Part shown: piece by piece, positions 9,849 through 58,380 of the stretch
Position numbering within the stretch: the first letter of the stretch is position 1
How the letters are laid out: each line of letters starts with the position of its first letter
NCBI GenBank assembly: GCA_016219325.1
Contig: JACRNH010000024.1
Span: 1,789-65,788, forward strand
Direction of reading: 5' to 3'
Length of the DNA: 64,000 nt
Source: Candidatus Collierbacteria bacterium
GTDB taxonomy: Bacteria; Patescibacteriota; Microgenomatia; UBA1400; JACPES01
Notes under the pieces: model-generated
The model's input: only the letters and a program-made list of their open reading frames with translations
Database searches by the model: none
Told to the model about the DNA's origin: nothing
Program-made: the position numbers and the translations under genes

Positions 9849-10514
9849 ATGAAAAATCCATTTTTTTGGGGACTGATTTTAATGGGAATAGTTTTTGCAA
9901 TATCATCCAAAACAATTTATGCCGTTGCAAAGCCACGTTTATATCTTGACCCGGCTGCGGATAGCGTTGAATCCGGATCGCAATTAACGCTTAATTTATC
10001 AATAGATGCCGGGGCTAAATCGGTAGTTGCTGCAGACGCAAAAATTTCTTTTCCGAAAGCCAAGCTGGAAGTTGTTTCTGTTAAAGTCGGAACATATTTT
10101 GATTCCATCAGTAAAATTATCGGAAATCAAACCGGGAATCTGGAAATTCACGCGTACAGTAAAGCTCAAGGCGAAACAAAAACAGGAGCAGGCGTCTTGG
10201 CTGTAATAACTTTTAAATCTTTATCTCCGGGTTCGGCAATCATTGATTTAATTTGTGTTGACGGAAGCACCACCGATAGCAATATCGCGGATGCGTCCGG
10301 AAACGATATTATTGATTGTTCACAAACCGCCGGGTCTGAAATTGTGGTTGTTCAAGCCGGAGCTGAAGCGGCCGTTGCCGCGACTCCGACGCCTAAACCT
10401 ACTAGTCTGCCGAAAGCCGGAAATATGACTCCATCTTTAATGCTGATGGCGGTTGGATCTTTAAGCCTGATTATTGGTTTTTCCGTCCTAGCTTTTCAAA
10501 AAGAACCGGCATGA
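9849..10514 (+). CDS. Secreted/anchored surface protein with a cohesin-like beta-sandwich domain and a C-terminal LPKAG + TM sorting-signal-like tail
   Basis: It has an N-terminal signal/TM segment. The middle segment shows a cohesin-like pattern (ISFPKAKLEVVSVKVGTYFD...GVLAVITFKSL). The C-terminus is 'SLPKAGN' + hydrophobic segment + QKEPA. Confidence 0.45.
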   Translation: MKNPFFWGLILMGIVFAISSKTIYAVAKPRLYLDPAADSVESGSQLTLNLSIDAGAKSVVAADAKISFPKAKLEVVSVKVGTYFDSISKIIGNQTGNLEIHAYSKAQGETKTGAGVLAVITFKSLSPGSAIIDLICVDGSTTDSNIADASGNDIIDCSQTAGSEIVVVQAGAEAAVAATPTPKPTSLPKAGNMTPSLMLMAVGSLSLIIGFSVLAFQKEPA

Positions 10515-10825
10515 AAAGAAAACAAATATCTGCAGTCGCGTTGTTATCTTTATTATTGGGAGCTGGTCTGGCCGGCGGGCTATATGTGATTAATACCCCG
10601 ACGAAAATCGCCCCTAGAGCCGTATCTCCTGCTCTAATTAACCAATTATCTCCGGCTAAACCAACAACGGAATCTTCTCCTTCGCCGGCAGTAACTTCTG
10701 TTAAATCCCGGTTATCGGAGCAGGCCATAATTGACGCTTTCGGAACGGCCGCAACAGAATACGATCTCAACCAGGACGGCATCGTTAATACCCTAGATTT
10801 ATCTGAATTCAGGAAAAACCATTAA
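10511..10825 (+). CDS. Small secreted protein with a single dockerin-type calcium-binding repeat
   Basis: It has a signal peptide and an S/P-rich linker. The C-terminal 'DLNQDGIVNTLDLSEF' matches the dockerin repeat consensus DxNxDGxVNxxDxxxL. It overlaps the upstream gene by 4 nt. Confidence 0.45.
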   Translation: MKRKQISAVALLSLLLGAGLAGGLYVINTPTKIAPRAVSPALINQLSPAKPTTESSPSPAVTSVKSRLSEQAIIDAFGTAATEYDLNQDGIVNTLDLSEFRKNH

Positions 10826-10908: not shown

Positions 10909-11931
10909 TTATTTGAGTAGTTCCGGTTGGTCAATTTCCTGAAAAGAAACCGTAGAAGTTATTTTTTGTCCCAATCTTTGAGTATGGCCGGAAACATCGC
11001 TGAATTTATTATAAGCGTTATTTATATGCCCGCCTAAAATATTTAACGAATCTTCCAATTGGCCGTAATCTTTTTCCACCGCCCGCAGTAAATTTAAAAT
11101 CTGCCTTGATCTGGAGGCGAATTGTTTGCCCTGAAATGCCCGCATAATTATTGATAAAGTGGCGTACATGGTATTCGGGCTGACCGGATAGATTCTTGAA
11201 TTTCTGGAGTAATCCATTAAATCCGGATTGGTGGCAATTTCGTAATATACCGATTCGCTGGGGATATACATCATGGCAAAATCGGTGGTGCCTTCATCAG
11301 GTAAAATATATTTTGAGGAGATGGTTCGAATGTGTTTTTTAACATCGTTGACGAATTCTTTGCCGGCTTTTTCCCGTTCCGACTTTTCCTCCGCTTTATT
11401 CATCCTTTGAAAATTTTCCATCGGAAACTTGCTATCGATCGGTAAAATTCCGGCGTCGGTTTTTATGGCCGCGTCCACCTTATCTCCGGATAAAAATTGA
11501 TGTTGCAGAAAAAACGAATTTTGGGGAATCATTTGGGCGATTAGATCGTTTAGGACTTGCTCGCCGATATTTCCCCGCAACTTCGGGCTTTTTAAAAATT
11601 CGTGCAGCTCTTTCATTGACCGCCCGATTTCGGAAAAACTTCCGGCCTCGCGTTTTAATTCGCCGATCACTTCGGCGGCTTTGGTCAGCCGCTCGTGGAT
11701 ATCGTGGGTTTGTTTGGTTAATGATTCCGATAAATGGCGGGTTGAATCAGACAAAGTTTCATTAAGAACTTTTTTGGTGTCCGAAATATCCCGGCTCATG
11801 GTCTTTAGCCATTCGGTCATGGTCTCATCGGTTTTGGGTTTTTTCAACTCTTGAATTTGGCGGTTAAGATACCAGGTAATGCTGGCTAAAATCGCGATTA
11901 AGATTGCAGCGGCTAAATATAATTCCGGCAT
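10909..11931 (-). CDS. rmuC: DNA recombination protein RmuC
   Basis: It has an N-terminal TM, a coiled coil and a C-terminal RmuC-type region (DFAMMYIPSESVYYEI). Confidence 0.65.
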   Translation of the reverse strand: MPELYLAAAILIAILASITWYLNRQIQELKKPKTDETMTEWLKTMSRDISDTKKVLNETLSDSTRHLSESLTKQTHDIHERLTKAAEVIGELKREAGSFSEIGRSMKELHEFLKSPKLRGNIGEQVLNDLIAQMIPQNSFFLQHQFLSGDKVDAAIKTDAGILPIDSKFPMENFQRMNKAEEKSEREKAGKEFVNDVKKHIRTISSKYILPDEGTTDFAMMYIPSESVYYEIATNPDLMDYSRNSRIYPVSPNTMYATLSIIMRAFQGKQFASRSRQILNLLRAVEKDYGQLEDSLNILGGHINNAYNKFSDVSGHTQRLGQKITSTVSFQEIDQPELLK

Positions 11932-20582: not shown

Positions 20583-20657
20583 TGGTGACCCCACCGGGAG
20601 TCGAACCCGAGTTTACAGGATGAGAACCTGCCGTCCTAGCCATTAGACGATGGGGCC
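20583..20657 (-). tRNA. tRNA-Glu (anticodon CUC), CCA encoded
   Basis: Manual fold: acceptor GGCCCCA/TGGGGTC, D-arm GTCT-AATGGCTA-GGAC, anticodon loop TTCTCAT, T-loop TTCGACT. The sequence has the tRNA-Glu-like CCCCaTCGTCTAatGGCtAGGAC signature. Confidence 0.8.
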
Positions 20658-20736
20658 TGTTTCTAAACTATGCAGAATTATATCAATCCCTAGGTTATAA
20701 TTCTTATTGTCTTTATAATGTTTATCGCTTATAAAC

Positions 20737-20807
20737 TGCGGGATCTGCTAATGGTAGGCAAGCTGGCTCTGAACCAGTAAATCTAGGTTCGATTCCTAGT
20801 CCCGCAA
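20737..20807 (+). tRNA. tRNA-Gln (anticodon CUG), U1-A72, no encoded CCA
   Basis: Manual fold: acceptor TGCGGGA/TCCCGCA, anticodon stem GCTGG/CCAGT, loop CTCTGAA, T-arm CTAGG-TTCGATT-CCTAG. Confidence 0.8.
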
Positions 20808-22999: not shown

Positions 23000-23821
23000 C
23001 TAATCTCTCTTACTTATTTTTATAAACCTTTTCCTTCCAAATTGATCTTTTATGATTTTTGCCCTGAAGTTTTTCGGAAGTTCCAAATCTTTAATTCTAT
23101 GTGTCTCGTCAATCTCCAAAAGTAAAACACCTTTAGATTTTAGCCTTGCCTGCGATTGAGCAATTAATTTATTGATCAATTTTAACCCATCCGGCCTGCC
23201 GTCGAGAGCTAAACGCGGTTCAAAATCTTTAACGGACTTCGGTAGTTTTGAAATTCTGGCAGAGGGAATATATGGAAGGTTGGCAATAATTAGATCAAAC
23301 CTTAAGTCTTTTGGGTAGCTATCAAACAAATCGCTTTCTAACCACACTAGCCACAAAAGGCCAGGCCTTTTTAAAAAGGCCTGGCCTTTTGTGGCTCTTA
23401 TGAGTCTTGAAATGTTTTCTTCCGCCACTTTCAACGCTTCTTCGGAAATATCAGACATATATATAGTAGGTTGAATTTCTAATTTAACTAATTCCAGATA
23501 TAGAGTAATCCCAATGCATCCGCATCCAGTTCCAAGGTCGGCGATGATTGGGGAGTAAGGAGTAGAAAGTAAAGAGCAAGAGCTAAGAATTTTTATGGCT
23601 TCGTCAATGAGCTGTTCGGTCTCAATCCGCGGGATTAAAACGTGTTTATTAACCTTAAAATCCCGACCGTAAAACTCCGCCCATCCGGTAATATATTCCA
23701 CCGGCATTTCACCATACTTTTTTAATTGTGAAGTTTGTCCTGCTAAGCAGGATCCTGCTCCGCAGGACGAAACTTTCCATTTCGCTAGCCAATTTATCTC
23801 CCTAGGGGAAAATTGCCTCAT
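23000..23821 (-). CDS. prmC: Release-factor glutamine N5-methyltransferase (HemK/PrmC)
   Basis: DLGTGCGCIGITL (motif I) and IIANLPY (the NPPY variant) are present. It carries a 15-aa in-frame insertion encoded by a perfect 44-nt palindrome. Confidence 0.85.
   Translation of the reverse strand: MRQFSPREINWLAKWKVSSCGAGSCLAGQTSQLKKYGEMPVEYITGWAEFYGRDFKVNKHVLIPRIETEQLIDEAIKILSSCSLLSTPYSPIIADLGTGCGCIGITLYLELVKLEIQPTIYMSDISEEALKVAEENISRLIRATKGQAFLKRPGLLWLVWLESDLFDSYPKDLRFDLIIANLPYIPSARISKLPKSVKDFEPRLALDGRPDGLKLINKLIAQSQARLKSKGVLLLEIDETHRIKDLELPKNFRAKIIKDQFGRKRFIKISKRD
23351..23394. repeat. Family-B palindromic element inserted in frame in prmC
   Basis: ccacaaaaggccaggcctttttaaaaaggcctggccttttgtgg (a perfect palindrome) encodes ..KGQAFLKRPGLLW... 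Confidence 0.85.
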
Positions 23822-26982: not shown

Positions 26983-27057
26983 GAAAATAATGAGTAAGAA
27001 GTAATGAGTAATGAATTTTTTGATCATTATTTCTTACTTTCTACTCATTACTCATTA
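26981..27057. repeat. Family-D 'GTAATGA' palindrome at a cistron junction
   Basis: aatgagtaagaagtaatgagtaatgaa ... tcattatttcttactttctactcattactcatta. It supplies the stop of the upstream gene and a spurious N-terminal extension of gmd. Confidence 0.8.
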
Positions 27058-28089
27058 ATGTCACGAAAAGCATTTATCACCGGCATTACCGGCCAGGACG
27101 GAAGTTATTTAGCGGAATTTCTTTTGGATAAGGGTTATGAAGTTTATGGCTTGATCCGCCGGACTTCAACGGTATCAACTGAACGAGTCTCTCATCTTTT
27201 GCATAAAATTTCAGTAGTCGACGGCGACTTAACCGATCAGCATTCGTTAACGCAGGCCATCCGCGACGTCCAGCCGGATGAAATTTATAATTTGGCGGCT
27301 CAATCTTTTGTTCCGACTTCGTTTAAGCAGCCGGTTTTAACCAGCGAAGCTACGGCTTTAGGGGTTACCAGAATGTTGGAGGCTATTCGCATCGCCAAGC
27401 CGGATACTAAATTTTATCAGGCGAGTTCTTCGGAAATGTTCGGTAAAGCGGTTGAAGTTCCGCAGTCGGAAACAACTCCATTTTATCCCCGTAGTCCTTA
27501 TGGTGTAGCCAAGGTCTACGGTCATTGGATCACGGTTAATTACCGGGAGTCATATAATCTTTTTGCCTGTTCAGGGATACTTTTTAATCATGAATCACCC
27601 CGCCGCGGTTTGACTTTTATTACCCGTAAAATCTCCATGAGCGTGGCTTGTCTGGCTACGGATTTGAAATGGGTGCCTCAAAATGAGATTGGCGAACCTT
27701 TAGTCGGACAGGATAAAAAAATCGCCATTGGCAATCTTGAATCTAAACGCGATTGGGGATTTGCCGGAGATTATGTTGAGGCGATGTGGTTGATGCTGCA
27801 GCAGTTAAAACCGGATGATTTTGTGATCGGAACAGGGGAAACCCATTCTGTCAGAGATTTTCTGGAGGCGGCTTTTGAGGTAGTTCAAATTAAAGATTGG
27901 GAAAAGCATATTAAAGTTGACAAGCGCTTTTACCGTCCGGCTGAAGTAGATCTATTGATTGCCGATCCTTCCAAGGCAAACCGGAAACTAAATTGGAAGC
28001 CAAAAACAAGTTTTAAGGATTTAGTAAAAATGATGGTGGAATATGATATAAAATTTGTGAAAAGGCAAATCGAAGGTAATCAAAAATGA
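27004..28089 (+). CDS. gmd: GDP-mannose 4,6-dehydratase
   Basis: [32 protein letters not shown] is near-canonical Gmd. The true start is probably the internal ATG at about 27058 (MSRKAF...). Confidence 0.9.

Positions 28090-32217: not shown

Positions 32218-32221
<4 letters not shown>
31472..32221 (+). CDS. Polyprenol-phosphate glycosyltransferase (GT2, ArnC/DPM1-like)
   Basis: IVIPSFNESENI...LVDDGSTDGT. Confidence 0.8.
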
Positions 32222-33239
<1,018 letters not shown>

Positions 33240-33264
<25 letters not shown>

Positions 33265-36303: not shown

Positions 36304-37583
36304 TAACAGCGCTTTTTTTTCTGTTAGCTGCGCTAATTAAGAATTTTACTCAAATTCCGGCCTCTCTTTTTGAGTCGGATCAGGAGACTTTGACAATTGC
36401 CGCCAAGAATATTCTAGGCGGACATTTTAGCCTGATTGGCGCTCCGACCAGCGTCGGGGGAATGTTTATCGCGCCTTTATATAATTATTTTGTCGCCATT
36501 TGGTTATGGATTTTCCGCGGCAGCCCTTATACGGTATCAATTTTAGGAGCAATATGGCTGTCGTTATTGATTCCGGCTATTTATCTGGTAGGAAAAAAAA
36601 TCTATTCTGGGTCAGTAGGAGTTTTCGCGGCGATTATTGCTCTATTGAGCATAAACTTTGTTAACTTTGATCAGGTTCCGCCATTATTATTTCCCCTGCC
36701 CCTGCTTACCGTAATTTTAATTTATGTTTTGGAAACTGAGCCGGCCACTAAATTCAGGAAAGCCATTATCGGCGCGGTCATAGGATTAACTTTAAATCTT
36801 CATTTTTCCGGAGTGTTTTTAGCCCCCTTACTGCTGATTTCCGGAATTTGGGGAAGTTTGGCATTGTTGATTTTGGTTTCGCCGTTAATTTTGTTTGATA
36901 TCCGCCATCAGTGGTGGAACATAGGTCACGCGGTGGAATTTTTAAGTAAAAGCGGAGCGGTAACTTCCCTGTGGTTTCGCCTGGATACTTTTCTGGTATC
37001 GTTCGCGGTTATTTTCGAAGCCGCAGCCGGAGCTGGAATGTTGGTAAAAACCGCGATGGGAGCTGTAATCGTTTGGGGATTTCTGTTCACAAGCCGCAAT
37101 TGGCCAAAAGTAATTTTGGGATTAACGTTTATCTTTTTCATGATTTATGGCGGGAGTCTTATTCCTTATTATGGAATCATTTCCTGGGTGCCGTTTATTT
37201 TGATTGCCGGATGCGGTTTGGAGAGACTGTGGGCGAAAGGGAATTTTATTAAATCAATAATTGTTTTGACGGGAGTGTTTTTCTTAATAATGAATTTTAA
37301 GGCCTTAAGTAACCGTTCGGCGAGTAGGGGGTTGGACAAAAAAATTGCCGCCCTGGAGTTTATTAAAAATGATTTTATAGGCCGGGAAATGTATCTTTCA
37401 ATAAATATGGATCCGGCGGCAAACTTCGGATTTACATATTTAACCGGATATGTTGGGATTAAATCCACTCCGTTTCCGGTTAAGCCTACTTATACTTTGC
37501 TTGCTCCTTACGATTGGTTGAAAGTTAATCCTGATAAGTCGTTTGGGGATTTCGGGGTGTTGATGTCTAGAAGTAATGAGTAA
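36300..37583 (+). CDS. Polytopic membrane protein, GT-C-like (paralog family 2)
   Basis: LIGAPTSVGGMFIAPLYNYFVAIWLW. Confidence 0.5.
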   Translation: MITALFFLLAALIKNFTQIPASLFESDQETLTIAAKNILGGHFSLIGAPTSVGGMFIAPLYNYFVAIWLWIFRGSPYTVSILGAIWLSLLIPAIYLVGKKIYSGSVGVFAAIIALLSINFVNFDQVPPLLFPLPLLTVILIYVLETEPATKFRKAIIGAVIGLTLNLHFSGVFLAPLLLISGIWGSLALLILVSPLILFDIRHQWWNIGHAVEFLSKSGAVTSLWFRLDTFLVSFAVIFEAAAGAGMLVKTAMGAVIVWGFLFTSRNWPKVILGLTFIFFMIYGGSLIPYYGIISWVPFILIAGCGLERLWAKGNFIKSIIVLTGVFFLIMNFKALSNRSASRGLDKKIAALEFIKNDFIGREMYLSINMDPAANFGFTYLTGYVGIKSTPFPVKPTYTLLAPYDWLKVNPDKSFGDFGVLMSRSNE

Positions 37584-37651
37584 TGAGTAGAAAGTAATGA
37601 GTAATGAATCGTAGGGTTCATTATTTATTACTTTCTATTTTCTACTCATTG
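37570..37651. repeat. Family-D 'GTAATGA' palindrome at a cistron junction
   Basis: agaagtaatgagtaatgagtagaaagtaatgagtaatgaa...ttcattatttattactttctattttctactcatt. Confidence 0.8.
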
Positions 37652-39118
37652 TTTATGAAATCGGATAAAACAATGAACTTTCTGACTATAGCTTTTATAA
37701 CCTTTATATCCTTTATCCTGTTTTTTTTCCGGTTGGGGAACACGGCATTAACCAATTGGGACGAGGCCTGGTTTGGCTCGGTAGCCCAGAATATGGCGGA
37801 ATCCGGAAACATTTTGGCCGGCAAGTGGAATGGGCAAATCTTTTTTTATGAACCGCCGCTTTTGGTTTGGTTGTTGAAGGCAACGATTAAACTTTTCGGC
37901 GAAAGCGAATTTTGGTTGAGGTCTGTTAGCGCCATTTCCGGGGTTTTTACAGTCATAGGATGTTATATTCTGGCCAAACAAATCTCTAAGTCAAAACTGG
38001 CGGGGATATTAGCAAGTTTAGTAATTTTGTCTGACATAGAAATTCTATTTCGGAGCCGGCAAATTAATGTTGAAATTCTTCTGACTGTTTTACTGCTGTG
38101 GTCAATTATATTCGCGGTTAAAGCCTATGAAGCAAAAAAAATCATCTGGATAATATCGTCAGCAATTTGTTTGGGTCTGGCATTTTTAACTAAACGGGCA
38201 AGTCCGTTATTAGCTCTTCCGGCAATAGGCTATTTATTCTTTTCGTCATTGACCCGTGAAGCGGGATCCCGCTCTGCGGGACGAGTCCCTTTGTTTATAT
38301 TCTTTATAACATTTACAATAGTTATTTCTCCTTGGTATTTATTAAGTTATTTAAAATGGGGAGACCAATTTATCAATGAATTTTTTATCGGATACACATT
38401 TAATAAAATTAAATCAGTCAATGCCAGTGTCGGAACTTCGCCATTTTTCTATTTAAATTCCCTTAAACACGCTTTTAAACTCTGGACTTTGTTAATTCCG
38501 CTGGCAGCAGTTTGGGGTACGTTAAAAGCTTTTCGTGACCGTAAGATTGCCGGATTGATGATTTTTATTTTAACCTTTCTGATACTCTTGACCGCCGCCC
38601 CGATAAAATCTTCCTGGTTCTTGCTCCCCATCCATCCGATAATTGCCGTAATCTTGGGAATATTCTTGTACAGCTGTCTGAAAAGGCCCGGCCTTGCATC
38701 GCAAGGCCGGGCCTTATTAAACAAATATCTCGTTTTTGCGGGATTATCTTTAATATTCGTTATCGCAACTTATCAACTTTATCACTATCGTCGCGACTAT
38801 ATTGTTCCTGACACTACAAATAATCAGGCCGTGATTTCGAGATTGGCAGGGTCGCTTTCAGAAAACGGAAAGTCAATTTATCTGGATGATGAGTATCTGC
38901 CGGTCGCGGTTTTTTATAGCCGTAAGAACGTTATTCCGTTAAGGTTTAGCCGGACCGAAAATCGGATTCCTAGTTTGGTTGATATCCCCGAAGGAAGTCT
39001 TGTATTGACTAATCTTGGAACATATCCGGTTTTAAAATCAGCTACGGGAATTATTTTTGAGGATATGTTCGCTGTCGGAGACATGTTGTTGGTCAGGTCT
39101 TTGGGCATAAGAATTTAA
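37604..39118 (+). CDS. ArnT-family (GT83-like) glycosyltransferase
   Basis: The 'NWDEAWFGSVAQNM' DE motif is present. The true start is probably an internal ATG (37655 or 37673). It carries family-B and family-C insertions. Confidence 0.6.
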   Translation: MNRRVHYLLLSIFYSLFMKSDKTMNFLTIAFITFISFILFFFRLGNTALTNWDEAWFGSVAQNMAESGNILAGKWNGQIFFYEPPLLVWLLKATIKLFGESEFWLRSVSAISGVFTVIGCYILAKQISKSKLAGILASLVILSDIEILFRSRQINVEILLTVLLLWSIIFAVKAYEAKKIIWIISSAICLGLAFLTKRASPLLALPAIGYLFFSSLTREAGSRSAGRVPLFIFFITFTIVISPWYLLSYLKWGDQFINEFFIGYTFNKIKSVNASVGTSPFFYLNSLKHAFKLWTLLIPLAAVWGTLKAFRDRKIAGLMIFILTFLILLTAAPIKSSWFLLPIHPIIAVILGIFLYSCLKRPGLASQGRALLNKYLVFAGLSLIFVIATYQLYHYRRDYIVPDTTNNQAVISRLAGSLSENGKSIYLDDEYLPVAVFYSRKNVIPLRFSRTENRIPSLVDIPEGSLVLTNLGTYPVLKSATGIIFEDMFAVGDMLLVRSLGIRI

Positions 39119-40282
39119 AATCATAAATAAGACGGCAGTAGTTAAAAAATGGCTGGATAGAAGCGGATTAAGACGTAACGGGAGATAAGAGTCTTTGAAA
39201 TAAAAGATAAGCAGAAAATAAGCCAATCCGGAAATTGCCAAATCCAGCATTTTTTTAGTTTTAATCAATTTTGCGACTAGAATTACCCAAAGAGGAATTA
39301 GAAAGACGTAATGGTGTTGCCACACAAACACCGGTAAAAATAACATTGTTATTACAGTTAAATTCCAAAAAGAGATAAAATCTTTTATTCCTTTTGTCAC
39401 TCCTGTCATTCCGGGCTTGACCCGGAATCTATACAAATAATCATTTAAAAAGAAGACCCCCAGGATCCCGCTAATCCCCAATCTTGTTATCGAATTCAAT
39501 TCCCCAAAAATTCCGAATTTCCCCAATAAGGCCGTAACCGATTGATTCATATAGCTTCCATTGAGAGTGGTACGAGTATTTTCGTTCATTAATTGCGGAA
39601 TGGTTTTAAAATAATAATAATAGGTTAAATCCCAACCGAATACGGAAATTCCGGCTATGGTTAATATTCCAATCGTAACCATAAACCACCAAACTGTTCT
39701 CCATCTTTTTCTAAATAAGAAATAAATTAGCAATGGGGCTGGCGTTAATTTTAAAATAGCCGCTAGCCCAAATAATATCCCTGATAAAGCCTCAAAAGGC
39801 CGGACCTTGCTTCGCAAAGTCCGGCCTTTATAAATTTCACAAAAATAATAACTTCCCACGATCAATCCTAAAATAATTAAATTAATTTGTCCCAGCGCCA
39901 GAGTTAATTTAGATGGGTAAGTCTTTAGAGCTAAAACAAAAATTAACCAAAAAATGGATGGGGATAATTTAATTTTTAACAATTCAAAAATCATTTTTAT
40001 GGTGAGCAGTAAGGAAAAAGCCGAAATTGCGGTAAATAAAAATTCGGCCGTATTTTCGGGAATTAAAGTCAACGGAATAAAAAATAGGGTAGCTGCGGGA
40101 GAATAATTGAATCGATCAAAAAACCTTAATTGATACGGGTTAGCCCCACTGAGAGCCGATTTAGTTCCGTCTAAATAAACACTAAAGTCGTTGAGACGGA
40201 AGTTCATGATTAATTGCCCAATGGGAATTACTTGTCTCCAAAGAATTATTGCTACAATCAAGAGTATTAATTTATTAACCAT
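39038..40282 (-). CDS. Polytopic membrane protein (GT-C-like)
   Basis: Multi-TM protein. The start was chosen at the ATG whose codon overlaps the divergent YfhO start (shared CATG at 40280-40283). It contains a family-B insertion. Confidence 0.45.
   Translation of the reverse strand: MVNKLILLIVAIILWRQVIPIGQLIMNFRLNDFSVYLDGTKSALSGANPYQLRFFDRFNYSPAATLFFIPLTLIPENTAEFLFTAISAFSLLLTIKMIFELLKIKLSPSIFWLIFVLALKTYPSKLTLALGQINLIILGLIVGSYYFCEIYKGRTLRSKVRPFEALSGILFGLAAILKLTPAPLLIYFLFRKRWRTVWWFMVTIGILTIAGISVFGWDLTYYYYFKTIPQLMNENTRTTLNGSYMNQSVTALLGKFGIFGELNSITRLGISGILGVFFLNDYLYRFRVKPGMTGVTKGIKDFISFWNLTVITMLFLPVFVWQHHYVFLIPLWVILVAKLIKTKKMLDLAISGLAYFLLIFYFKDSYLPLRLNPLLSSHFLTTAVLFMILNSYAQRPDQQHVSDSEHILKNNSRS
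39404..39439. repeat. Family-A hairpin repeat (inside the minus-strand membrane-protein gene region)
   Basis: tgtcattccGGGCTTGACCCggaatctatacaaata. Confidence 0.75.
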
Positions 40283-42488
40283 GAAATTTTTCAGCCGCTT
40301 ACCTATTCTAACCATTTTAACCATTTCAATAATTTCTTTATTTTACTTCAAACCAATTTGGAAAGACCGTTTAATTCCGTTTCCGGGGAATTTGCTGATT
40401 TCTTATTTTAGCCCATGGAAAGAAGAAAGTTGGCCGGGATATCCGACCGGAGTTCCGCGCAAAGGCTTATTGGGATTTGATACGGTCCGGATGATGGGCC
40501 CATGGCGAAATTTTATTACCAAAGAACTCAAGTCGAGTCGTTTCCCATCCTGGAATCCGCATCAGTTTGGAGGCACGCCGATGTCAGCCAATTACCAGTC
40601 AGCTCTTTTTTTTCCTCCCAATTTAATTTATCTTATCCTGCCTTTTTACGTCGCTTGGACGATTTTAATCATCTCTCAACCAATCCTCGCTGCGACCGGA
40701 ATGTATTTGTTGCTTAAAGCATTATTTAATGTTTCTCTATCAACGCATCAACGCATTAACGCATTAACTATTACGTTTCTTTCTTTTATGTACGGTTTCT
40801 CCGCCTGGATGTCAGTTTGGATTGAGTGGAATATTCACGGTTTTGTCTATGCGTTACTTCCGTTCGGGCTGCTTTTTATCCATAAAAGAAAAACTATCTT
40901 AACCATCTTAACTATTTCATTTATTATCTTTGCCGGTCACCCCCAAATGGCCCTGATCGGAATTTCGGCTTTGGCAATATTCGTCATGATTGGGAAAAAG
41001 TTTAAATGGTTTATAACAGTTATGTCAGTTGTTTTGTTGATTACTTCAGTCCAATGGTTCCCGTCTTTGAAATACTACCAACAAGCTAGCCGCGAAAAAC
41101 AATCAAGCGAATTTGTGTACGAAAATACTCTTTTGCCATGGAAACAGTTGTCTCAATTGATCGTCCCTAATTTTTTCGGAAATCCGGCCACGGGTAATTT
41201 TTCCGGTAAACTGGATTTTTTGGAATCCACGGCATATTCAGGAATAGCGATATTAGGGCTTGCGATGATTGGATTGTTGGCAAAAAACAAAAAATCCCGC
41301 GGAGCGGGATCCCGCTCTGCGGGACAAGAAACAAGAAACTTTGCGATTATTCTCTTAGTGTTGATTTCGGTTTTGGTCCTCCCGAACCCAATTTCGCTCT
41401 TGATCGGTAAACTTAATATTCCGATTTTGTCGACTTCTGTTGCCAGCCGTTGGCTGATGCTTTTGCCTCTGGGGCTAACATTGCTTGCTGCTGTTGGTAT
41501 CACCGAATTTTTTTCAAATAAAGCCTGGCCTCGCGAAGCAAGGCCAGGCCTTTATACGCCATCAATACTTCTGATTTCAATTATCGGTCTCTGGATATAC
41601 GCTTTATTTTTTCCCCCGGAATTCCGTTCTGTTTCATTCAGAAATTTGATAATCCCCACCGTTATTGCCGGATTGTTTTTCTTAACATTTTTATTCAAGT
41701 TTGCCGATCGGCAGTCTGGGATGAAAGTTTTCTTATTAACTTTGTATATTTTATCTATCGGGGAGCTGATTTTATTCGGTTGGAAAACAATGCCCTATAC
41801 CGAAAAACGGTTTATTTATCCGGTAACGCCAGTTTTGGAAAAATTACAGGAGTTTTCCCGCGATGGCAGTCGTTTTGCCGCGACAGATGGCAGCGTGATT
41901 GACTCTAATTTTGCCACTTATTATGGGTTGTACGATTTATCGGGTTATGACGCCTTATACCCGAGGAAAATAGGCGAGTTGGTTTGGTCGGCCGCCAACA
42001 ATGGAAAGCCCGTCAAAGATTTTTCCAGATCAACAGTAGTAGTTCCCACAAAACAATCAGACGCCAGAAATAATCTGTGGAATTTAAGCGGTGTCCGCTG
42101 GATCATCAATAAGGATGATATGTTGGCTGAACATCCGGGTCAAAGATCCAGCGATTTGTCTTCTGATTTCGAACTTATCTGGGAAGAGGGGAAGTGGCAA
42201 ATTTATAAAAACACTAAAGTGTATTCTCGTGCATTTTTTACTACTGACATCTCCCAAATCCCCCCAATCTCCTTAATCACCCCGGCTGAAATAGTTTCCT
42301 CTCAATCAAATCTTGTAGAAATAACAGTCGATGCCCCAAGTGACGGATATCTGGTTTTAACGGATACTTTTTATCCGGGATGGAAAGCAACGGTTGACGG
42401 CAATGCTGTGGAAATTATACCGGCTTTTAGAGCTTTCAGGGCTGTTCAAGTTTTAAGGGGTAGCCATGCTGTAAGATTTAATTTATGA
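40281..42488 (+). CDS. YfhO-family membrane protein (GT-C-type glycosyltransferase)
   Basis: FPGNLLISYFSPWKEESWPG...WNPHQFGGTPMSANYQSALFFPPN is the YfhO N-terminal pattern. Start at MKFFSRLP. It carries family-B and family-C insertions. Confidence 0.65.
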   Translation: MKFFSRLPILTILTISIISLFYFKPIWKDRLIPFPGNLLISYFSPWKEESWPGYPTGVPRKGLLGFDTVRMMGPWRNFITKELKSSRFPSWNPHQFGGTPMSANYQSALFFPPNLIYLILPFYVAWTILIISQPILAATGMYLLLKALFNVSLSTHQRINALTITFLSFMYGFSAWMSVWIEWNIHGFVYALLPFGLLFIHKRKTILTILTISFIIFAGHPQMALIGISALAIFVMIGKKFKWFITVMSVVLLITSVQWFPSLKYYQQASREKQSSEFVYENTLLPWKQLSQLIVPNFFGNPATGNFSGKLDFLESTAYSGIAILGLAMIGLLAKNKKSRGAGSRSAGQETRNFAIILLVLISVLVLPNPISLLIGKLNIPILSTSVASRWLMLLPLGLTLLAAVGITEFFSNKAWPREARPGLYTPSILLISIIGLWIYALFFPPEFRSVSFRNLIIPTVIAGLFFLTFLFKFADRQSGMKVFLLTLYILSIGELILFGWKTMPYTEKRFIYPVTPVLEKLQEFSRDGSRFAATDGSVIDSNFATYYGLYDLSGYDALYPRKIGELVWSAANNGKPVKDFSRSTVVVPTKQSDARNNLWNLSGVRWIINKDDMLAEHPGQRSSDLSSDFELIWEEGKWQIYKNTKVYSRAFFTTDISQIPPISLITPAEIVSSQSNLVEITVDAPSDGYLVLTDTFYPGWKATVDGNAVEIIPAFRAFRAVQVLRGSHAVRFNL

Positions 42489-43183
42489 AAATTTCAATTA
42501 TTATTCCGGTATTTAACGAAGAAAAAACAATCGCCAAAATCATCAGACAGATTAATAATGTAATCGGATTCCGGAAAGAAATTATAGTTGTTGATGATGC
42601 TTCGGTTGATGGAACATCTGGAGTTATAAAAGATATCCTTCGACTTCGCTCAGGACAAGTAAAGGATATAACTGTTATTAAACATAAAATTAATCAGGGC
42701 AAGGGCGCTGCGATTAGAACCGGAATTGCTAAAGCTACCGGCGATTATGTTTTGGTTCAGGATGCTGATTTGGAATACGATCCGCAGGATATTTTATCAA
42801 TGATCAAACCTATTAGCCAGGGGAAAGCGGAGGTCGTCTACGGTTCGCGGTTTACAGGACCGAGACGGAATATGTTTTTTTGGCATTGGATGGGAAATCA
42901 ATTATTGACACTTATAACCAATATTCTTTACAACACAACACTTTCAGATATGGAAACTTGTTATAAATTAATTCCCTTAAGATTAATTAAGTCTTTAAAT
43001 TTGAAAGCTCAAAGGTTTGAATTTGAACCTGAAGTAACCGCTAAAATTTTAAAAAGAAATATCAGAATTTGGGAAGTTCCGATTTCTTACGCCGGACGCG
43101 AATATCATGAGGGCAAAAAAATTACCTGGAAAGACGGGATACCGGCCCTGTGGACATTGATAAAGGAACGGATAACTCCGTAA
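42485..43183 (+). CDS. Polyprenol-phosphate glycosyltransferase (GT2, DPM1-like)
   Basis: ISIIIPVFNEEKTI...VVDDASVDGT. Confidence 0.8.
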   Translation: MKISIIIPVFNEEKTIAKIIRQINNVIGFRKEIIVVDDASVDGTSGVIKDILRLRSGQVKDITVIKHKINQGKGAAIRTGIAKATGDYVLVQDADLEYDPQDILSMIKPISQGKAEVVYGSRFTGPRRNMFFWHWMGNQLLTLITNILYNTTLSDMETCYKLIPLRLIKSLNLKAQRFEFEPEVTAKILKRNIRIWEVPISYAGREYHEGKKITWKDGIPALWTLIKERITP

Positions 43184-43275
43184 TGAGTAAGAAGTAAGGA
43201 GTAATGAGTAATGAAAAGCACAAAAATAAATATCCAATCATTATTTTCTACTCATTATTTCTTACTCATTATTTT
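43180..43275. repeat. Family-D 'GTAATGA' palindrome at a cistron junction
   Basis: gtaatgagtaagaagtaaggagtaatgagtaatgaa...tcattattttctactcattatttcttactcattatt. Confidence 0.8.
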
Positions 43276-44623: not shown

Positions 44624-46264
44624 GGCAAAAATTGAGATAGCATCAGCAGCATTTCTTAGTAGCGTTTCCGACCAATGGATTTGTAGAATATGTTCTCCGG
44701 GAGGAATATTAACGCTTATCAGTCCGAATTTATTGTCAGGATTTTGTTTTACGGGAATGGATAAAGGATAAAAATTGTTGTCAACATAAATTTTCCAGCC
44801 GGGATAGTAGATAGTGTTAATTTTGACGCCGTATGTTTGTTTGGTTTTATTGTAAATCCTGAATTTATAATTTCGGTTTTCCAGGGACAATTCTTCAATT
44901 TTAATATTAGGGCAAGACATGTTATCTTTCGGCAATAGGACTTGGGCTTTTTTCTCATATTCAGGCGGTAAATTTTCACTCCAAATAGGAGTTACTTCAT
45001 TGGATGGATTGCCGACTCCAAACAGCAGTTGATAAAATCCGGTAATATCATTGTCGTAATATCTGTCAAAAACTGCCGGCCGGAAATGATTCCGGTTGCC
45101 GTATATGGCCAGGATTATTAATCCTGATCCCGCCAGCCATTTTAGCCAGCCAAGTTTAAGTTTAGGCAGAATTTCTATCGAGAAAGCGCCCGTCACCGCG
45201 GCCCCGAAAACAAGAATTGCGGTTAACCGGTTTGGGAATTGAATGGTTTTCATTAAGGGGATCCAGTTCCAAATCGGAATTGAGATTTTAAGCATCAGAA
45301 AAAAAGTAATAAATGAGATTATGGTCAGAATTTTTGCCGGAAAATAAAGTTTTTTATTGAATAAAACAAAAATTGCGGATAATAATAAGGCAATGATTTG
45401 AGCAAACCCGATCATGGGCGAGACTCCGTCTTTAGTTCCGTTCAAGGAAAACCCATATCCCCATGCCTGATATAAATATGATTTCAGCGGCGGGAAATTA
45501 TTAACTGCGTCATAGACCGGTTGTTGGCCCTGATGCGTCCATCTGGTTTCATACACTGCCGGCAACCAAAAATATGCCGAGATAGCCAGTCCTCCGATGA
45601 ACATTAAAATTATGTGTTTTAAGGAAGCCTGTTTTTTTGAAAGATATGTCCATAAAAATAAAATTGGAGTGAATAATAAAGAGGTGACATTATGAGCGAT
45701 AATCAGCGTTCCATAGGCTAATGATCCAAGCAGTAAATGCCGTTTTTGACCGGAAATTCCCGCTTTAGCGGCTGCCAAAAATGCGACCGGAAGAGCCAAA
45801 AAGACAAGAGATTCCGCCCACCTTCCTGTTACGAACATTGAAACGAACCTAAACGGAGCATATATATATAGTATGGATCCGGCAATAGCACTGAATTGGC
45901 CAACCCAAAGCCTCAAAAATAAGTACATAACAATTCCTGATCCAACGAAAGCCAATCCTAAAACCAGTTTCATGGAATCAACTAATGTAAAATCCATTAG
46001 GTGGAAAAATTCCCCGGAGTAATAAAGCAAGGGATAATAGAAATTAAAAATAGGGTATCCATAGCGGTGATTGGCGGTTTCGCTCCATCTGACCGGAAAT
46101 TGGCCGGACATTAATTCCTGATCAAACCAATGGAGTCGGATGACGTGCAGCCGGCCGTCGTGAGCTTCAAATAGCCCCGGTTTAATCAAAGTTTGTAAAG
46201 GCGGCAGGGAAATCAGTACAATAAGCAGAATGGCGAAGAGACTTATCTTATTTATACTTTTCAT
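44576..46264 (-). CDS. Polytopic membrane protein, 'FPVRW' paralog family (copy 2, inverted)
   Basis: GQFPVRWSETANHRYGYPIFNFYYPL. Its 3' end overlaps copy 1 by 48 nt and its 5' end overlaps copy 3 by 35 nt. Confidence 0.55.
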   Translation of the reverse strand: MKSINKISLFAILLIVLISLPPLQTLIKPGLFEAHDGRLHVIRLHWFDQELMSGQFPVRWSETANHRYGYPIFNFYYPLLYYSGEFFHLMDFTLVDSMKLVLGLAFVGSGIVMYLFLRLWVGQFSAIAGSILYIYAPFRFVSMFVTGRWAESLVFLALPVAFLAAAKAGISGQKRHLLLGSLAYGTLIIAHNVTSLLFTPILFLWTYLSKKQASLKHIILMFIGGLAISAYFWLPAVYETRWTHQGQQPVYDAVNNFPPLKSYLYQAWGYGFSLNGTKDGVSPMIGFAQIIALLLSAIFVLFNKKLYFPAKILTIISFITFFLMLKISIPIWNWIPLMKTIQFPNRLTAILVFGAAVTGAFSIEILPKLKLGWLKWLAGSGLIILAIYGNRNHFRPAVFDRYYDNDITGFYQLLFGVGNPSNEVTPIWSENLPPEYEKKAQVLLPKDNMSCPNIKIEELSLENRNYKFRIYNKTKQTYGVKINTIYYPGWKIYVDNNFYPLSIPVKQNPDNKFGLISVNIPPGEHILQIHWSETLLRNAADAISIFALIFILLSLKQKQDSK

Positions 46265-49250: not shown

Positions 49251-50198
49251 ATGAAACAAGCACTTTCTGTAGTTTTTTCTGTCCACAACGAAGAAAAGCT
49301 GATCGAGGAAGCCCTGAAATCAGTCAGCCGGATAGCGGATGAAATTATTGTTGTAGATAATGAATCAACTGATAAAACAATTCAAATAGCTAAAAAGTAC
49401 ACAAAAAATATCTATGTACACAAAAATACCCCAAATTCTTTGAATACTCCTAAAAATTACGGTTTTTCCAAAGCGAAAGGTGATTGGATTTTGTCTTTGG
49501 ACGCCGACGAGCGCGTTTCCCCCGATCTTGCAGAGGAAATTATGGGAAGTTTGCGAAACTTCCCACAATCAACTGGCGTTTCGCAAACTTCTGTTAACGG
49601 GTATTGGATGCCGAGAAAAAATATTGTTTTTGGTAAGTGGATACAGCACGGGATTTGGTATCCGGATAAACAGTTGAGATTATTCCGTCGCGGGAAAGGT
49701 AAATTTCCGGAGAAACATAATCATGAATATTTAGAAGTAACTGATGGATTGGGTGAATTAAAAAATCATTTGATCCATCAAAACTATCAAACAATAGTCC
49801 AGTTTGTGGATAAAATGAATCATGCGTATACGGATAATGAGGCAGAGGTTTTGCTGGCTTCCGGTAAAAAATTAGAATGGCTTGACGCTATCAGAATGCC
49901 TGTTTCTGATTTCATTCTTAACTTTTTCCGCCGCCAGTCGTATAAAGATGGGCTTCACGGTTTGATCTTATCTTCACTTCAGGCTTTTTATGCTCTTCTG
50001 GTATTTGCAAAAGCATGGGAGCGGCAGGGGTTTTGGGAATACGACTCAAAAGATTTTGCCCGTGATGTCAAGATTGAGTTAAAAAATAAGGGGCAAGAAT
50101 TTTCCTGGTGGTACACTAAAGAAATTATTCCTTGGTTTTTAAAACCAAAACAAATTGCGAAGAAACTAATTAATCAAATAAGGCCTGGCCTTGCCTAG
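49251..50198 (+). CDS. Family-2 glycosyltransferase
   Basis: LSVVFSVHNEEKLI...VVDNESTDKT and the DAD motif are present. The stop lies inside a family-B palindrome. Confidence 0.75.
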   Translation: MKQALSVVFSVHNEEKLIEEALKSVSRIADEIIVVDNESTDKTIQIAKKYTKNIYVHKNTPNSLNTPKNYGFSKAKGDWILSLDADERVSPDLAEEIMGSLRNFPQSTGVSQTSVNGYWMPRKNIVFGKWIQHGIWYPDKQLRLFRRGKGKFPEKHNHEYLEVTDGLGELKNHLIHQNYQTIVQFVDKMNHAYTDNEAEVLLASGKKLEWLDAIRMPVSDFILNFFRRQSYKDGLHGLILSSLQAFYALLVFAKAWERQGFWEYDSKDFARDVKIELKNKGQEFSWWYTKEIIPWFLKPKQIAKKLINQIRPGLA

Positions 50199-50214
50199 CA
50201 AGGCCAGGCCTTTA
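50180..50214. repeat. Family-B palindromic element
   Basis: aaggcctggccttgcctagcaaggccaggccttta. Confidence 0.85.
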
Positions 50215-55906: not shown

Positions 55907-56831
55907 CGGTAAATTACTGCTGGAAAAAAATTTGCCGGCGGTTATATATTCCTTGAGGCGTCTGGAAAGGCCTGGCCCTGCGAAGCAGGGCCAGGCCTTT
56001 ATTGATTCCGAAATAATAGTTGTGGACGATGCTTCTTCGGATAGCACAGAAAAATGGTTAACGGCAGAATATCCGGAAGTAAAGTTAATAAAAAATAAAA
56101 ACAATTTGCGTTTTGCTCGTTCATGTAACCGCGGGGTAAATGCTGCCAAGGGAGAGATTGTGGTTTTATTAAATAATGATGTCAGTCCCAGTCCTGACTT
56201 TTTGTCTTATGTGATCCCGCATTTTGGAGACGAAAAAGTATTCGCGGTCGGCTTCGGAGAAATAAACTCGGTTGACGGAAAAATTATTCACGGAGGAAGA
56301 GGTGTATCCAAATTTGAGCGGGGACTGGTTATGCATTGGCGCCCAATAGACCAAAAAAGTCCGGTGGTAACATGGCTTTCCGGCGGCAGTATGGCTTTCA
56401 ACAAAAGTATTTGGGAAAGGCTGGGGGGATTTGATGAGTTATTTAGACCGGCTTATGAGGAAGACCGGGATTTATGTTGGCAGGCTTTAAAATCAGGCTA
56501 TAAAATAGTTTTTGAGCAGAAAGCTGTTGTTGAACATTTTCACGAATCCACTAATTTAAAATTATTCGGAAAGACAAAAATATCTATGTACTCGTTAAAA
56601 AATCAGCTTCTTTTTGTTTGGAAAAATATATCTTCTCCAAAATACTTGTTGAGCCATTTAATTTGGTTTCCGTATCATTTAATTTTAACTACAATAAGGA
56701 CTAAGGGAATATTTTTGGCAGCATTTTGCTGGGCTTTGACGCAGTTGCCGGAGACTTTGATATCCAGAAAAAGCGCTTCAAAACTTTGGAGAATAGATGA
56801 TGAAGAAATTTTTAAATTGGCTGAAAAATAA
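55860..56831 (+). CDS. Family-2 glycosyltransferase
   Basis: ISIVIPSYNGK...VVDDASSDST and LLNNDV are present. It contains a family-B insertion (ERPGPAKQGQAF). Confidence 0.75.
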   Translation: MIQMLNSISIVIPSYNGKLLLEKNLPAVIYSLRRLERPGPAKQGQAFIDSEIIVVDDASSDSTEKWLTAEYPEVKLIKNKNNLRFARSCNRGVNAAKGEIVVLLNNDVSPSPDFLSYVIPHFGDEKVFAVGFGEINSVDGKIIHGGRGVSKFERGLVMHWRPIDQKSPVVTWLSGGSMAFNKSIWERLGGFDELFRPAYEEDRDLCWQALKSGYKIVFEQKAVVEHFHESTNLKLFGKTKISMYSLKNQLLFVWKNISSPKYLLSHLIWFPYHLILTTIRTKGIFLAAFCWALTQLPETLISRKSASKLWRIDDEEIFKLAEK

Positions 56832-58380
56832 TTGGCTGTTTCTGCTGGTTGTAATAATCGGCGGGCTCTTAAGATTTTACCGTTTGCAGGATTTAGCAAC
56901 ATTCGGTGGGGATCAGGGGGTTGATTATCAAAATGTTGCCAGAATGATTGCGGAAAGAAAGTTGTCGCTGTTGGGACCAATAACTCACGTAGGAATATTT
57001 TTAGGACCGCTATATTATTATTTATTAATTCCTTTTTTCCTGATCTTCAATTTTGATCCGATTGCCGCTCCGGTGATGTTTGCGCTTTTCGGAACTGCCA
57101 CCGTGGGATTGGTTTATATACTGGCTATAAAGTTTTTTTCTTTCATCCATCATCCATCATCCCGCCGGGCAGAGTCTCTGGGCGGCGCCATCATCCATCA
57201 TTACCAAGAATTCGCTTTTCTAACCGCTCTTTTCTATGCCGTTTCTCCCGTCATTCTTGAATCCAGCCGGGCGCCGTCTCAACCGCACCTGATTCCTTTT
57301 TTTGCAACTTTGCTATTAATTTCAATCTTCCGCATTGTTGAGAAAACAGATAAATGGTGGGATTGGGTGGGGCTTGGGATTGCATCGGGAAGTTTGATTC
57401 AACTTCACTTTTTAACATTTCCGATATATATATTTTTCCTGATCATTTTGTCTTTGGTTGTTGCCGCCAAACGGATACAAATTTCATTGTTTCCTGTTTC
57501 CTGTTTCTTGTTTTCTGTTTTGCTTTTATTTCCCTGGCTCCTTTTTGAACTTCGCCATAACTTCTTTATCACCAATCAGGTTATTGCTTATCTCCGTTCA
57601 GGAGAGGTTTCGTTTTCTCCGGCAAATTATTTTGAAAGAGTTCTTGATTTGATTTGGTTTTCGTTTGACCGCTTAATCGGCCAGGGGAATCAGGCTATAA
57701 CTATTATTGCAATTATTTTAAGTTTGACTGGTATTATTTCTAATAAGGTTACACCTTGTCGTACGCTAAGGTGTAACCTTTTGAGCCCTACAGGAATAAT
57801 CGTGTTTTATTTCTTGATAAATATCTTAGGAATCGCTCTTTACAAATTCCCTCTTTCAAATCATTATATATCAGCTTTATACACGGTAATTATTTTATTT
57901 TTTTCGCTAGGAATTGTTAAAATTCTGCCGAAATCATTGTCTTTTATCGTATTTATTATGTTTATAACCTTTATTTCTTCCCAAAATAATTTAGACTCAA
58001 ATCACGGGTATACCATGCCGGAGTGGGTTAACGCCAGTTTGATTGAAAAGGCCGCAAATATAATCTCATCAGATATCAAAAATAGGCCAGGAACTTATAA
58101 CGTAGTAAACACATTGGACGGCGATACCCGGGCTAATCCTTACCGCTATGTCCTAACTTACAGAAATAAAGTTCCGCCGTTGGGAGTCGAAAAATATTCA
58201 GAAGCGGACTATTTATATATTGTTTCCAGAGGTGCCAGAAATGAGCTTTTGGAAGATAAACGTTGGGAATTATTAAGTTTTCCGGTTGGGAATATTGAAT
58301 CCTTGGGAACGATCGGAGGAGATATAAAATTGTACAGGTGGGATAATGGTAGAGCGGACAGAAAGGATTTAATGAAATGA
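56797..58380 (+). CDS. Polytopic membrane protein, GT-C-like (paralog family 2)
   Basis: FGGDQGVDYQNVARM...GPITHVGIFLGPLYYYLL. It contains a family-C-like insertion and repeat-derived 'VSCFLFSVLLLF'. Confidence 0.5.
   Translation: MMKKFLNWLKNNWLFLLVVIIGGLLRFYRLQDLATFGGDQGVDYQNVARMIAERKLSLLGPITHVGIFLGPLYYYLLIPFFLIFNFDPIAAPVMFALFGTATVGLVYILAIKFFSFIHHPSSRRAESLGGAIIHHYQEFAFLTALFYAVSPVILESSRAPSQPHLIPFFATLLLISIFRIVEKTDKWWDWVGLGIASGSLIQLHFLTFPIYIFFLIILSLVVAAKRIQISLFPVSCFLFSVLLLFPWLLFELRHNFFITNQVIAYLRSGEVSFSPANYFERVLDLIWFSFDRLIGQGNQAITIIAIILSLTGIISNKVTPCRTLRCNLLSPTGIIVFYFLINILGIALYKFPLSNHYISALYTVIILFFSLGIVKILPKSLSFIVFIMFITFISSQNNLDSNHGYTMPEWVNASLIEKAANIISSDIKNRPGTYNVVNTLDGDTRANPYRYVLTYRNKVPPLGVEKYSEADYLYIVSRGARNELLEDKRWELLSFPVGNIESLGTIGGDIKLYRWDNGRADRKDLMK

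Follow-up and report, generated by a model that had tools for sequence, protein, structure and literature searches.

Repetitive extragenic palindromic (REP) sequences are extragenic by name, and a 2010 report by Nunvar is said to be linked with the system that they form with REP-associated tyrosine transposases (RAYTs). Another type of palindromic repeat, the Rickettsia palindromic element (RPE), goes back to Ogata et al. in 2000, whose RPE-1 reportedly occurs as an in-frame insertion in a wide range of unrelated genes, housekeeping ones among them, and adds a surface segment to their products; it is said to measure about 100–150 bp and to occur in Rickettsia only, and we know of no transposase or other mobilising enzyme for RPEs. 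REP doublets forming hairpins (REPINs) with their RAYT transposases have been described by Bertels & Rainey 2011 (PMC3116915), intragenic REPs and the small Rickettsia elements RPE-4 and RPE-6 by Di Nocera et al. 2013 (PMC3733652), and yeast mitochondrial GC clusters such as GC42 in PMC4478555. The present work deals with a 64,000-nt stretch of DNA (hereafter the window, GC content about 40%) from Candidatus Collierbacteria, a lineage of the Microgenomates among the ultra-small bacteria of the Candidate Phyla Radiation (CPR), in which a family of short palindromes, family B, lies in frame inside protein-coding genes, among them prmC. Family B is quite probably a repeat of the REP/REPIN type that has a cognate gene for a RAYT-like Y1 (HUH) transposase and is mobile in coding DNA, because RAYT-like Y1 transposase genes of the same lineage are flanked by family B.

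The canonical element, as found at six sites of the window, consists of a 13-nt unit, AAGGCCNGGCCTT, a spacer of 5–9 nt and the inverted unit. The sequence GGCCAGGCC occurs 9 times in the window against 0.22 expected, and AAAGGCCTGGCC, with at most one mismatch allowed, 12 times against 0.30, with no shuffled sequence reaching either number. When one genome per species was scanned with an exact pattern, the element turned up in no more than eight stretches, coming from Collierbacteria, Daviesbacteria, Jorgensenbacteria, Saccharibacteria and two metagenome-assembled genomes binned as Gammaproteobacteria. Seven of the eight carry it inside open reading frames (ORFs) of 339–608 codons, including those for a P-type ATPase, ArgRS and PheT, which were named from sequence motifs and, for the ATPase and ArgRS, confirmed by PDB alignments. 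The two stretches binned as ‘uncultured Gammaproteobacteria’ (L003 and L004) have exact family-B hairpins, of which one lies within an ORF of 339 codons, and may be either mis-binned contigs or a sign of the element reaching beyond CPR. Scanning of metagenomes yielded at least 120 stretches; the family-wide figures given here cover the matches listed, among which 146 distinct further copies were gathered from CPR genomes and groundwater metagenomes. Identical 33–34-mers are present at non-homologous genes and across CPR phyla. No copy was found when the family-B pattern was searched for in viral contigs, phage records and plasmid records.

The unusual feature of family B is that it is mostly intragenic. 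In total, 116 of 141 copies (82%) are fully contained in open stretches of 150 codons or more, compared with 87% of the bases of the same loci (p = 0.10; per-base mask), so that no bias against coding DNA is seen. The reading frame, which the original prediction had proposed to tabulate, is the same on both sides in 101 of the 104 collected copies that are flanked in both directions by 60 or more open codons, chance being one third, and none of the copies tested in this way has a stop codon in the host frame. All three phases are used (56/50/14 copies). The hosts belong to 79 Pfam families, of which GT4 is the commonest (12/116), the others including PMT_2, UDP-GlcNAc 2-epimerase, GatA, class I aminoacyl-tRNA synthetases, pseudouridine synthase, TsaD, UppS, UvrB, PrmC and P-type ATPases. 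Alignment gaps at the element show solved homologues of CopA and ArgRS to be shorter there by 6 and 9 residues, respectively.

The candidate enzyme was traced via clusters of solo units to an ORF of locus L040 (6325-7017, 230 aa), the product of which matches Pfam Y1_Tnp with 30.4 bits at a cut-off of 23. The HUH (HFH) and YIH tyrosine motifs are kept across 11 homologues, and a profile made from their alignment matches the ISDra2 TnpA structures with E = 0.003; a PDB search with a single RAYT-like protein returned no match. A 48-nt palindrome of the prmC type, identical to the copy in the window prmC at 46 of 48 positions, is located 47 nt upstream of the start of the L040 gene, and a further unit 6 nt past its stop codon. 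The RAYT-like protein family has 5,101 members at E ≤ 1e-5, the named ones belonging to Levy-, Gottesman-, Shapiro- and Collierbacteria, with the JGI label RayT on one of them. Homologues found by protein alone, with 73–90% identity (L134-136, L137-138, L139, L140), are all flanked by family-B units, about 35–100 nt upstream and 1–15 nt downstream, in a conserved neighbourhood in which Rho, an M23 peptidase, tRNA-like sequences and a TPR protein accompany the transposase gene, and the flanked genes come from Collierbacteria and Levybacteria. More RAYT-like genes adjoin family-B units in loci fetched by DNA pattern alone (L028, L130, L131, L088). Distant RAYT-like clades bear palindromes of their own on both sides; RAYT-like genes are flanked by AAGGTTACACCTT.., the same as the variant at window position 57745, in L086 and L112, by AAGGTTGGACCTT in L053, and by CTTCGCAAGG..CCTTGCGAAG in L141 and L142, the latter locus also having TCAGGCCAGGCCTGA.

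The product of the L140 gene is MBI5356389.1 of Candidatus Collierbacteria, which is within about 600 accessions of the window proteins MBI5356947-6996 (HZB78_05325) and was, like them, recovered from run SRR12113407; judging by accession order and the shared run, this gene probably belongs to the window's own genome. The short contigs reached from the terminal genes of the window contained no RAYT-like gene. When 0.97 Mb of loci were searched by phmmer with an IS200 TnpA query, no match was obtained, which was a false negative, as RAYT-like genes were later found there.

Several further features were seen around the RAYT-like genes. L142 has two of them, each with a different flanking repeat, and a copy of the flanking palindrome, AGCTTCGCAAGGGGACGCCTTGCGAAGCT, also lies inside the gene's own ORF (10498-10526). 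The RAYT-like gene adjoins what by eye are tRNA-like sequences (L040 7140-7330; the upstream regions of L134-L139), and both the gene and these sequences are enclosed in L040 by a 27-nt direct repeat, CCACAAAAGGCCTGGCCTTTATTCTTA.

At most orthologous sites, where the flanks share 65–88% identity, a hairpin from the same family or superfamily is retained, with compensatory double changes between the orthologous copies. At site 55967, for example, L013 has GGCCTTCCG-T-CGGAAGGCC in place of the arms and spacer of the window copy, GGCCCTGC-GAA-GCAGGGCC, and the L026 copy is likewise compensatory; the sole difference between the orthologous copies of L064 and L092 is an inversion of the loop, AAA versus TTT. 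Empty sites were found as well: L041 is 33 nt shorter than L002 and L127, 30 nt are absent from L063 compared to L083 and from L032 compared to L074, and 24 nt are absent from L101, L011 and the window compared to L075, all these differences being multiples of three. The empty sites, the retention of frame and the PrmC comparison given below support the original prediction in its central point, namely that a mobile palindromic element is tolerated in frame within proteins.

The window PrmC is 100% identical to MBI5356963.1 (NCBI, 124,693-bp contig). The perfect 44-nt palindrome predicted in its gene (23351-23394) is indeed there, with symmetry running on to 48 nt (23349-23396) and the two halves being AGCCACAAAAGGCCAGGCCTTTTT and AAAAAGGCCTGGCCTTTTGTGGCT. 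Within the minus-strand ORF 23000-23821 it keeps the frame and codes for residues A143-L158, ATKGQAFLKRPGLLWL, the predicted tryptic peptide across the insert being RPGLLWLVWLESDLFDSYPK. In the AlphaFold model of PrmC, with a mean predicted local distance difference test score (pLDDT) of 87.7, the insert lies in a loop that joins helix 127-144 to strand 158-162 and has a pLDDT of about 70, compared with more than 93 on both sides, and solved PrmC/HemK structures have no counterpart of it, there being an alignment gap at this place. An alignment of 33 orthologues, in which the segment was measured from the invariant Asn136 to the next (Ser/Asp) strand, gave 14–17 residues for repeat-free orthologues of 44–64% identity (P0016, P0017, P0030, P0033, P0048, P0063, P0109), 20–26 residues for sequences with family-B peptides (KGQAFLKRPGLL, KARPCEARPGLI and similar) and 32–43 residues for four sequences with another palindrome (DCHVAYAPRND). 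The segment is shorter where the element is absent, and relatives having the extra segment also carry the repeat. At the DNA level, the 58% identical orthologue of L013 has a canonical element, ATAAAGGCCCGGCCTTGC-GGA-GCAAGGCCGGGCCTTAT, at the same place. The catalytic motif of the window PrmC and its close relatives is NLPY in place of the canonical NPPY.

The six further sites that had been listed in the window all exist (centres at about 32962, 38699, 39812, 41536, 50196 and 55983) and share the canonical design, the prmC copy being a separate subfamily rather than a seventh member of the same kind (Table 1). Their peptides (KGLALPSARPGL, KRPGLASQGRAL, YKGRTLRSKVRPFE, NKAWPREARPGL, IRPGLA* and ERPGPAKQGQAF) vary by frame, so the expectation that every copy encodes an ‘RPGL/KGQAF’-type peptide did not hold, and the difference of the peptides with reading frame places the conservation at the DNA level; all three frames are used by the window copies. 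With the variant at 57745 included, seven of eight copies are in ORFs with the frame open, in line with the claim that host ORFs are left unbroken, and the eighth, at 50180, supplies a TAG stop at 50196-50198, as was proposed, and so ends its gene. The hosts of the six copies were thought to be membrane-protein genes throughout, which is true of four (MptA_B-like, PMT_2, GT87 and the 765-aa protein), the other two being GT2 glycosyltransferases. The L009 orthologue of ORF 32218-33264 is 14 aa shorter and has half a unit left.

Table 1. Family-B members and the host gene prmC in the window
Feature	Position	Strand	Remarks
prmC, release-factor glutamine methyltransferase	23000..23821	-	Pfam MTS methyltransferase; NCBI name PrmC; NLPY motif
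prmC-type palindrome, 48 nt	23349..23396		two AAGGCCWGGCCTT units, spacer TTTAAA, outer arms AGCCACAA/TTGTGGCT
Canonical hairpin, spacer GCCGTCGGC	32945..32979		in frame, MptA_B-like membrane protein ORF 32218-33264 (KGLALPSARPGL)
Canonical hairpin, C/G variant, spacer GCATCGC	38683..38715		in frame, PMT_2 glycosyltransferase ORF 37604-39118 (KRPGLASQGRAL)
Diverged canonical hairpin AAGGCCGGACCTT/AAAGTCCGGCCTT	39795..39829		in frame, minus-strand GT87 ORF 39038-40324; orthologous copy in L027
Canonical hairpin, two mismatches	41520..41552		in frame, 765-aa membrane protein ORF 40191-42488 (NKAWPREARPGL); orthologous copy in L021
Canonical hairpin, spacer GCCTAGC with TAG stop	50180..50212		3' end of GT2 gene 49251-50198; next gene starts 23 nt on
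Canonical hairpin GGCCCTGC-GAA-GCAGGGCC	55967..55999		in frame, GT2 ORF 55860-56831 (ERPGPAKQGQAF)
Variant, AAGG-N5-CCTT superfamily, AAGGTTACACCTT-GTCGTACGCT-AAGGTGTAACCTT	57745..57780		eighth member; in frame, ORF 56797-58380

As to mechanism, the inverted units with their short spacer would fold as a hairpin in single-stranded DNA, and a RAYT-like Y1 transposase from the IS200/IS605 superfamily, with one or a few gene copies in each of these Microgenomates genomes, flanked by the same repeats, would mobilise family B by copying the hairpins in trans via single-stranded DNA, with no target duplication left. The hairpins would land in coding DNA as often as elsewhere, and the persisting copies would be those that keep the frame, are free of stops and sit in permissive loops. 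Such copies would be read through, adding about 5–15 residues, of which A143-L158 of PrmC may be an example, and would then be long-lived, with the arms staying complementary at the DNA level. The inserts are presumably translated and seem to be neutral or nearly so, and the in-frame state is the survival of tolerated insertions.

With regard to a target-site duplication, direct repeats at the element ends are no more frequent than in a shuffled control. IS200/IS605-type insertion leaves no target duplication, and the lack of one together with the hairpin dependence fits single-strand transposition of this type. A miniature inverted-repeat transposable element was considered and rejected, as there was no excess of direct repeats over the control and no DDE transposase was found in the window.

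The palindrome ends sharply at AAGG...CCTT in 108 of 139 copies, and the spacers of the 146 copies, 5–11 nt long, are mostly self-complementary, GCCGCGGC being the commonest. In 136 of 146 copies the arms have complementary central bases (T/A 55, C/G 49, A/T 29, G/C 3); of the ten non-complementary pairs seven are same-base (TT, CC, GG, AA), which is expected from a flip of one palindromic unit rather than from point mutation.

A number of observations weigh against the assignment of family B to a RAYT-mobilised REPIN type. Transposition is read from sequence comparison, no event having been observed, and no RAYT-like gene was found in the window itself. The L040 protein scores only a weak 23.6 bits against NCBIfam REP_Tyr_transpos, the equivalog cut-off of which is 80, and the GTAG/CGTC tag of the classical REP superfamilies is absent, being present within 8 nt of an end in only 4 of 139 copies. 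The length of the core is a codon multiple in only 39 of 116 coding copies, so the core alone cannot be the inserted unit and the junctions must vary or adjust, and in PrmC the canonical element adds only 4–5 net residues, not 11. Random insertion alone does not explain why other palindrome families (CAGGAGTCTCCTG.., GTCATTGCGAGG..) are found elsewhere at the same orthologous sites, nor why L085, L074 and L122 have heptamer tandem repeats there instead of family B, ATGGTTG being repeated four times in L085. A broader scenario may be imagined, although we regard it as rather unlikely, in which CPR RAYT-REPIN systems moved from intergenic to coding DNA and several families replace each other at the same permissive loops, with perfect palindromes kept by a hairpin-dependent process as a standing source of loop insertions throughout the proteome, or else a DNA-level host function selects their retention in genes.

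It is improbable that the hairpins are host-selected RNA or DNA signals in operons (terminators, attenuators, mRNA stabilisers or processing sites) with an incidental coding position. They are very stable, RNA folding having given hairpins at all seven sites predicted in the window with −23 to −49 kcal/mol and z = −5 to −11, their perfect pairing is kept by compensatory changes across flanks of the above identity, the 50180 copy stands between two genes, and the intergenic subfamily CAAAAAAGGCC..GGCCTTTTTTG (L039, L069, L087, L110) resembles a bidirectional terminator, all of which would suit such signals. The intragenic copies, however, have no U-tract (the flank consensus is ...A.A), and an intrinsic terminator was rejected for them, a few intergenic copies qualifying; copies are found in single essential genes of the 79 host families, no Rfam family matches the hairpins (only two tRNAs of the window were matched), and the flanking of RAYT-like genes is left without reason. 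In addition, mismatches on the sense strand comprise 9 G:U and 17 A:C, a small and noisy sample with no G:U excess, which together with the loop inversion and the unit flips argues for maintenance at the DNA rather than the RNA level.

A DNA-level role could also be that of a duplex site for a dimeric protein, such as an uptake signal, a site of a nucleoid or segregation protein, or a 13-8-13 recombinase site, with the 13-nt unit spread by selection. Every unit is itself palindromic, exact solo units are estimated at about 9 true solos in 0.97 Mb against 0.1 expected, the identical 34-mers occur in different CPR phyla, and the 13 + 7/8 + 13 layout is like that of tyrosine-recombinase core sites. 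What makes this very improbable is that variants (AAGGATACTCCTT/AAGGAGTATCCTT in L075; AAGGTTACACCTT/AAGGTGTAACCTT) lose the palindrome of the unit while the arms stay complementary to each other, so that the conserved object is the hairpin and not the unit. The spacers, moreover, are variable and mostly self-complementary, there is only about one element per 9 kb, and GGCC outside the elements is no more depleted than other 4-nt palindromes (observed-to-expected ratio 0.69), a figure that was uninformative as to restriction avoidance, which was dropped as a candidate.

Alternatively, template switching or quasi-palindrome correction could create and renew the palindromes in place at permissive loops, with nothing copied from one locus to another, and their position beside RAYT-like genes would be secondary. 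This would agree with sites that persist while their sequence turns over, with near-perfect arms and few intermediates, with the predominance of same-base central mismatches and with a core length unrelated to codon phase. As an account of where the copies come from it is highly implausible: identical 33–34-mers at non-homologous genes and in different phyla exclude independent origin, and clean empty sites exist. In-place renewal may well act after insertion, which would explain the complementarity of the arms but not the origin of the copies. Finally, that the elements remain untranslated through ribosome bypass or RNA removal, like yeast mitochondrial bypass elements or phage T4 gene 60, is scarcely credible, since it has no direct support beyond the occurrence of GC-rich hairpins in AT-richer genes, as with bypass elements, and a bypassed or excised element would need neither the kept frame nor the lack of host-frame stops.

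Other in-frame palindromes are present in the window. A second family, of the GCGGGATCCCGC / GCAGGATCCTGC type, is found at 23729-23773, 38249-38293 and 41292-41336 and encodes SSCGAGSCLAGQ in PrmC and ‘EAGSRSAGR’ and ‘GAGSRSAGQ’ at the other sites; the PrmC copy is modelled with pLDDT below 50, and orthologues have a different palindrome there, FAKPDSWREVSQ. The palindrome GTCATTGCGAGGAGCGTAGCGACGCGGCAATC at 46826-46860 (ORF 46230-47792), coding for RHCEERSDAAIS, is of the same family as the one at the L011 prmC site. Further in-frame hairpins are ATCCTTCGACTTCGCTCAGGACAAGTAAAGGAT (‘LRLRSGQV’) at 42635-42665 in a GT2 gene and ATTCCGGACTTGATCCGGAAT at 49207-49233, at the C-terminus of ORF 47770-49239. 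CATCCAT heptamer repeats occupy 57139-57207 in ORF 56797-58380, a place taken by family B in relatives, and inverted heptamer arrays of the AATGAGT type are located between window genes (26983-27062; 37575-37650; 43181-43271). Outside the window, a protein gene made of 21-nt tandem repeats (AAGGCCGGGCCTTGGGAACAC, peptide KAGPWEH) in L098 (1240-2880) holds the family-B 13-mer in direct orientation. The other window genes include the C-terminal part of a Type ISP restriction-modification enzyme (37-2034), an RmuC-family gene (10909-11931), a RhuM-family gene (60074-61027) and two divergent tRNA genes (20586-20807).

Family B joins two features, a REPIN-like hairpin with a cognate RAYT-like gene and copies in frame in housekeeping enzymes, and thereby offers a testable enzyme-substrate pair for the spread of in-frame palindromes. 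It would explain why CPR proteins have many short, low-confidence inserts, which matters for annotation, alignment and structure prediction in a group that is large and uncultured, and it lends itself to studying the ways in which small, gene-dense genomes put up with selfish hairpins or make use of them. No literature linking RAYT or REPIN with CPR bacteria was found, the coverage of the search being incomplete.

Among the described systems, yeast GC42 (PMC4478555) is alike in that GC-rich hairpins of about 40 nt lie in an AT-rich genome, their stems are better conserved than their loops, and palindromic modules merge or shuffle, but it is organellar and mostly intergenic, has an AG target and lacks an associated transposase. 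The likeness to RPEs suggested by the original prediction holds for behaviour, as family B inserts in frame in ORFs and adds a peptide segment; with 31–48 nt instead of 100–150 nt and with Candidatus Collierbacteria, an unrelated organism, as host, family B is set apart from them by length and organism, not by sequence alignment. Intragenic REPs and RPE-4/RPE-6 (PMC3733652) are likewise REP-sized palindromes, often dimers, in ORFs, theirs encoding 20–30 extra residues, and different REPs are also found at about the same site of orthologous genes, although the intragenic REPs are a minority of a mainly extragenic family with GTAG or CGTC tags, while family B is mostly intragenic and untagged. 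From the REP/REPIN-RAYT system family B differs in that its doublet is 31–48 nt rather than about 70–110 nt long, that 82% of its copies are in ORFs and in frame, whereas classical REPs are extragenic, that it has no GTAG/CGTC tag and a CPR bacterium as host, and that its transposase is only distantly related to proteobacterial RAYTs. Both have hairpin-forming inverted doublets of short, GC-rich palindromic units, a spacer that is less conserved yet subject to compensatory change, and singlets as remnants, and in both a Y1/HUH gene is flanked by the same repeats, the REPtron arrangement seen here in L040, L134-136, L137-138, L139, L140, L028, L130 and L131.

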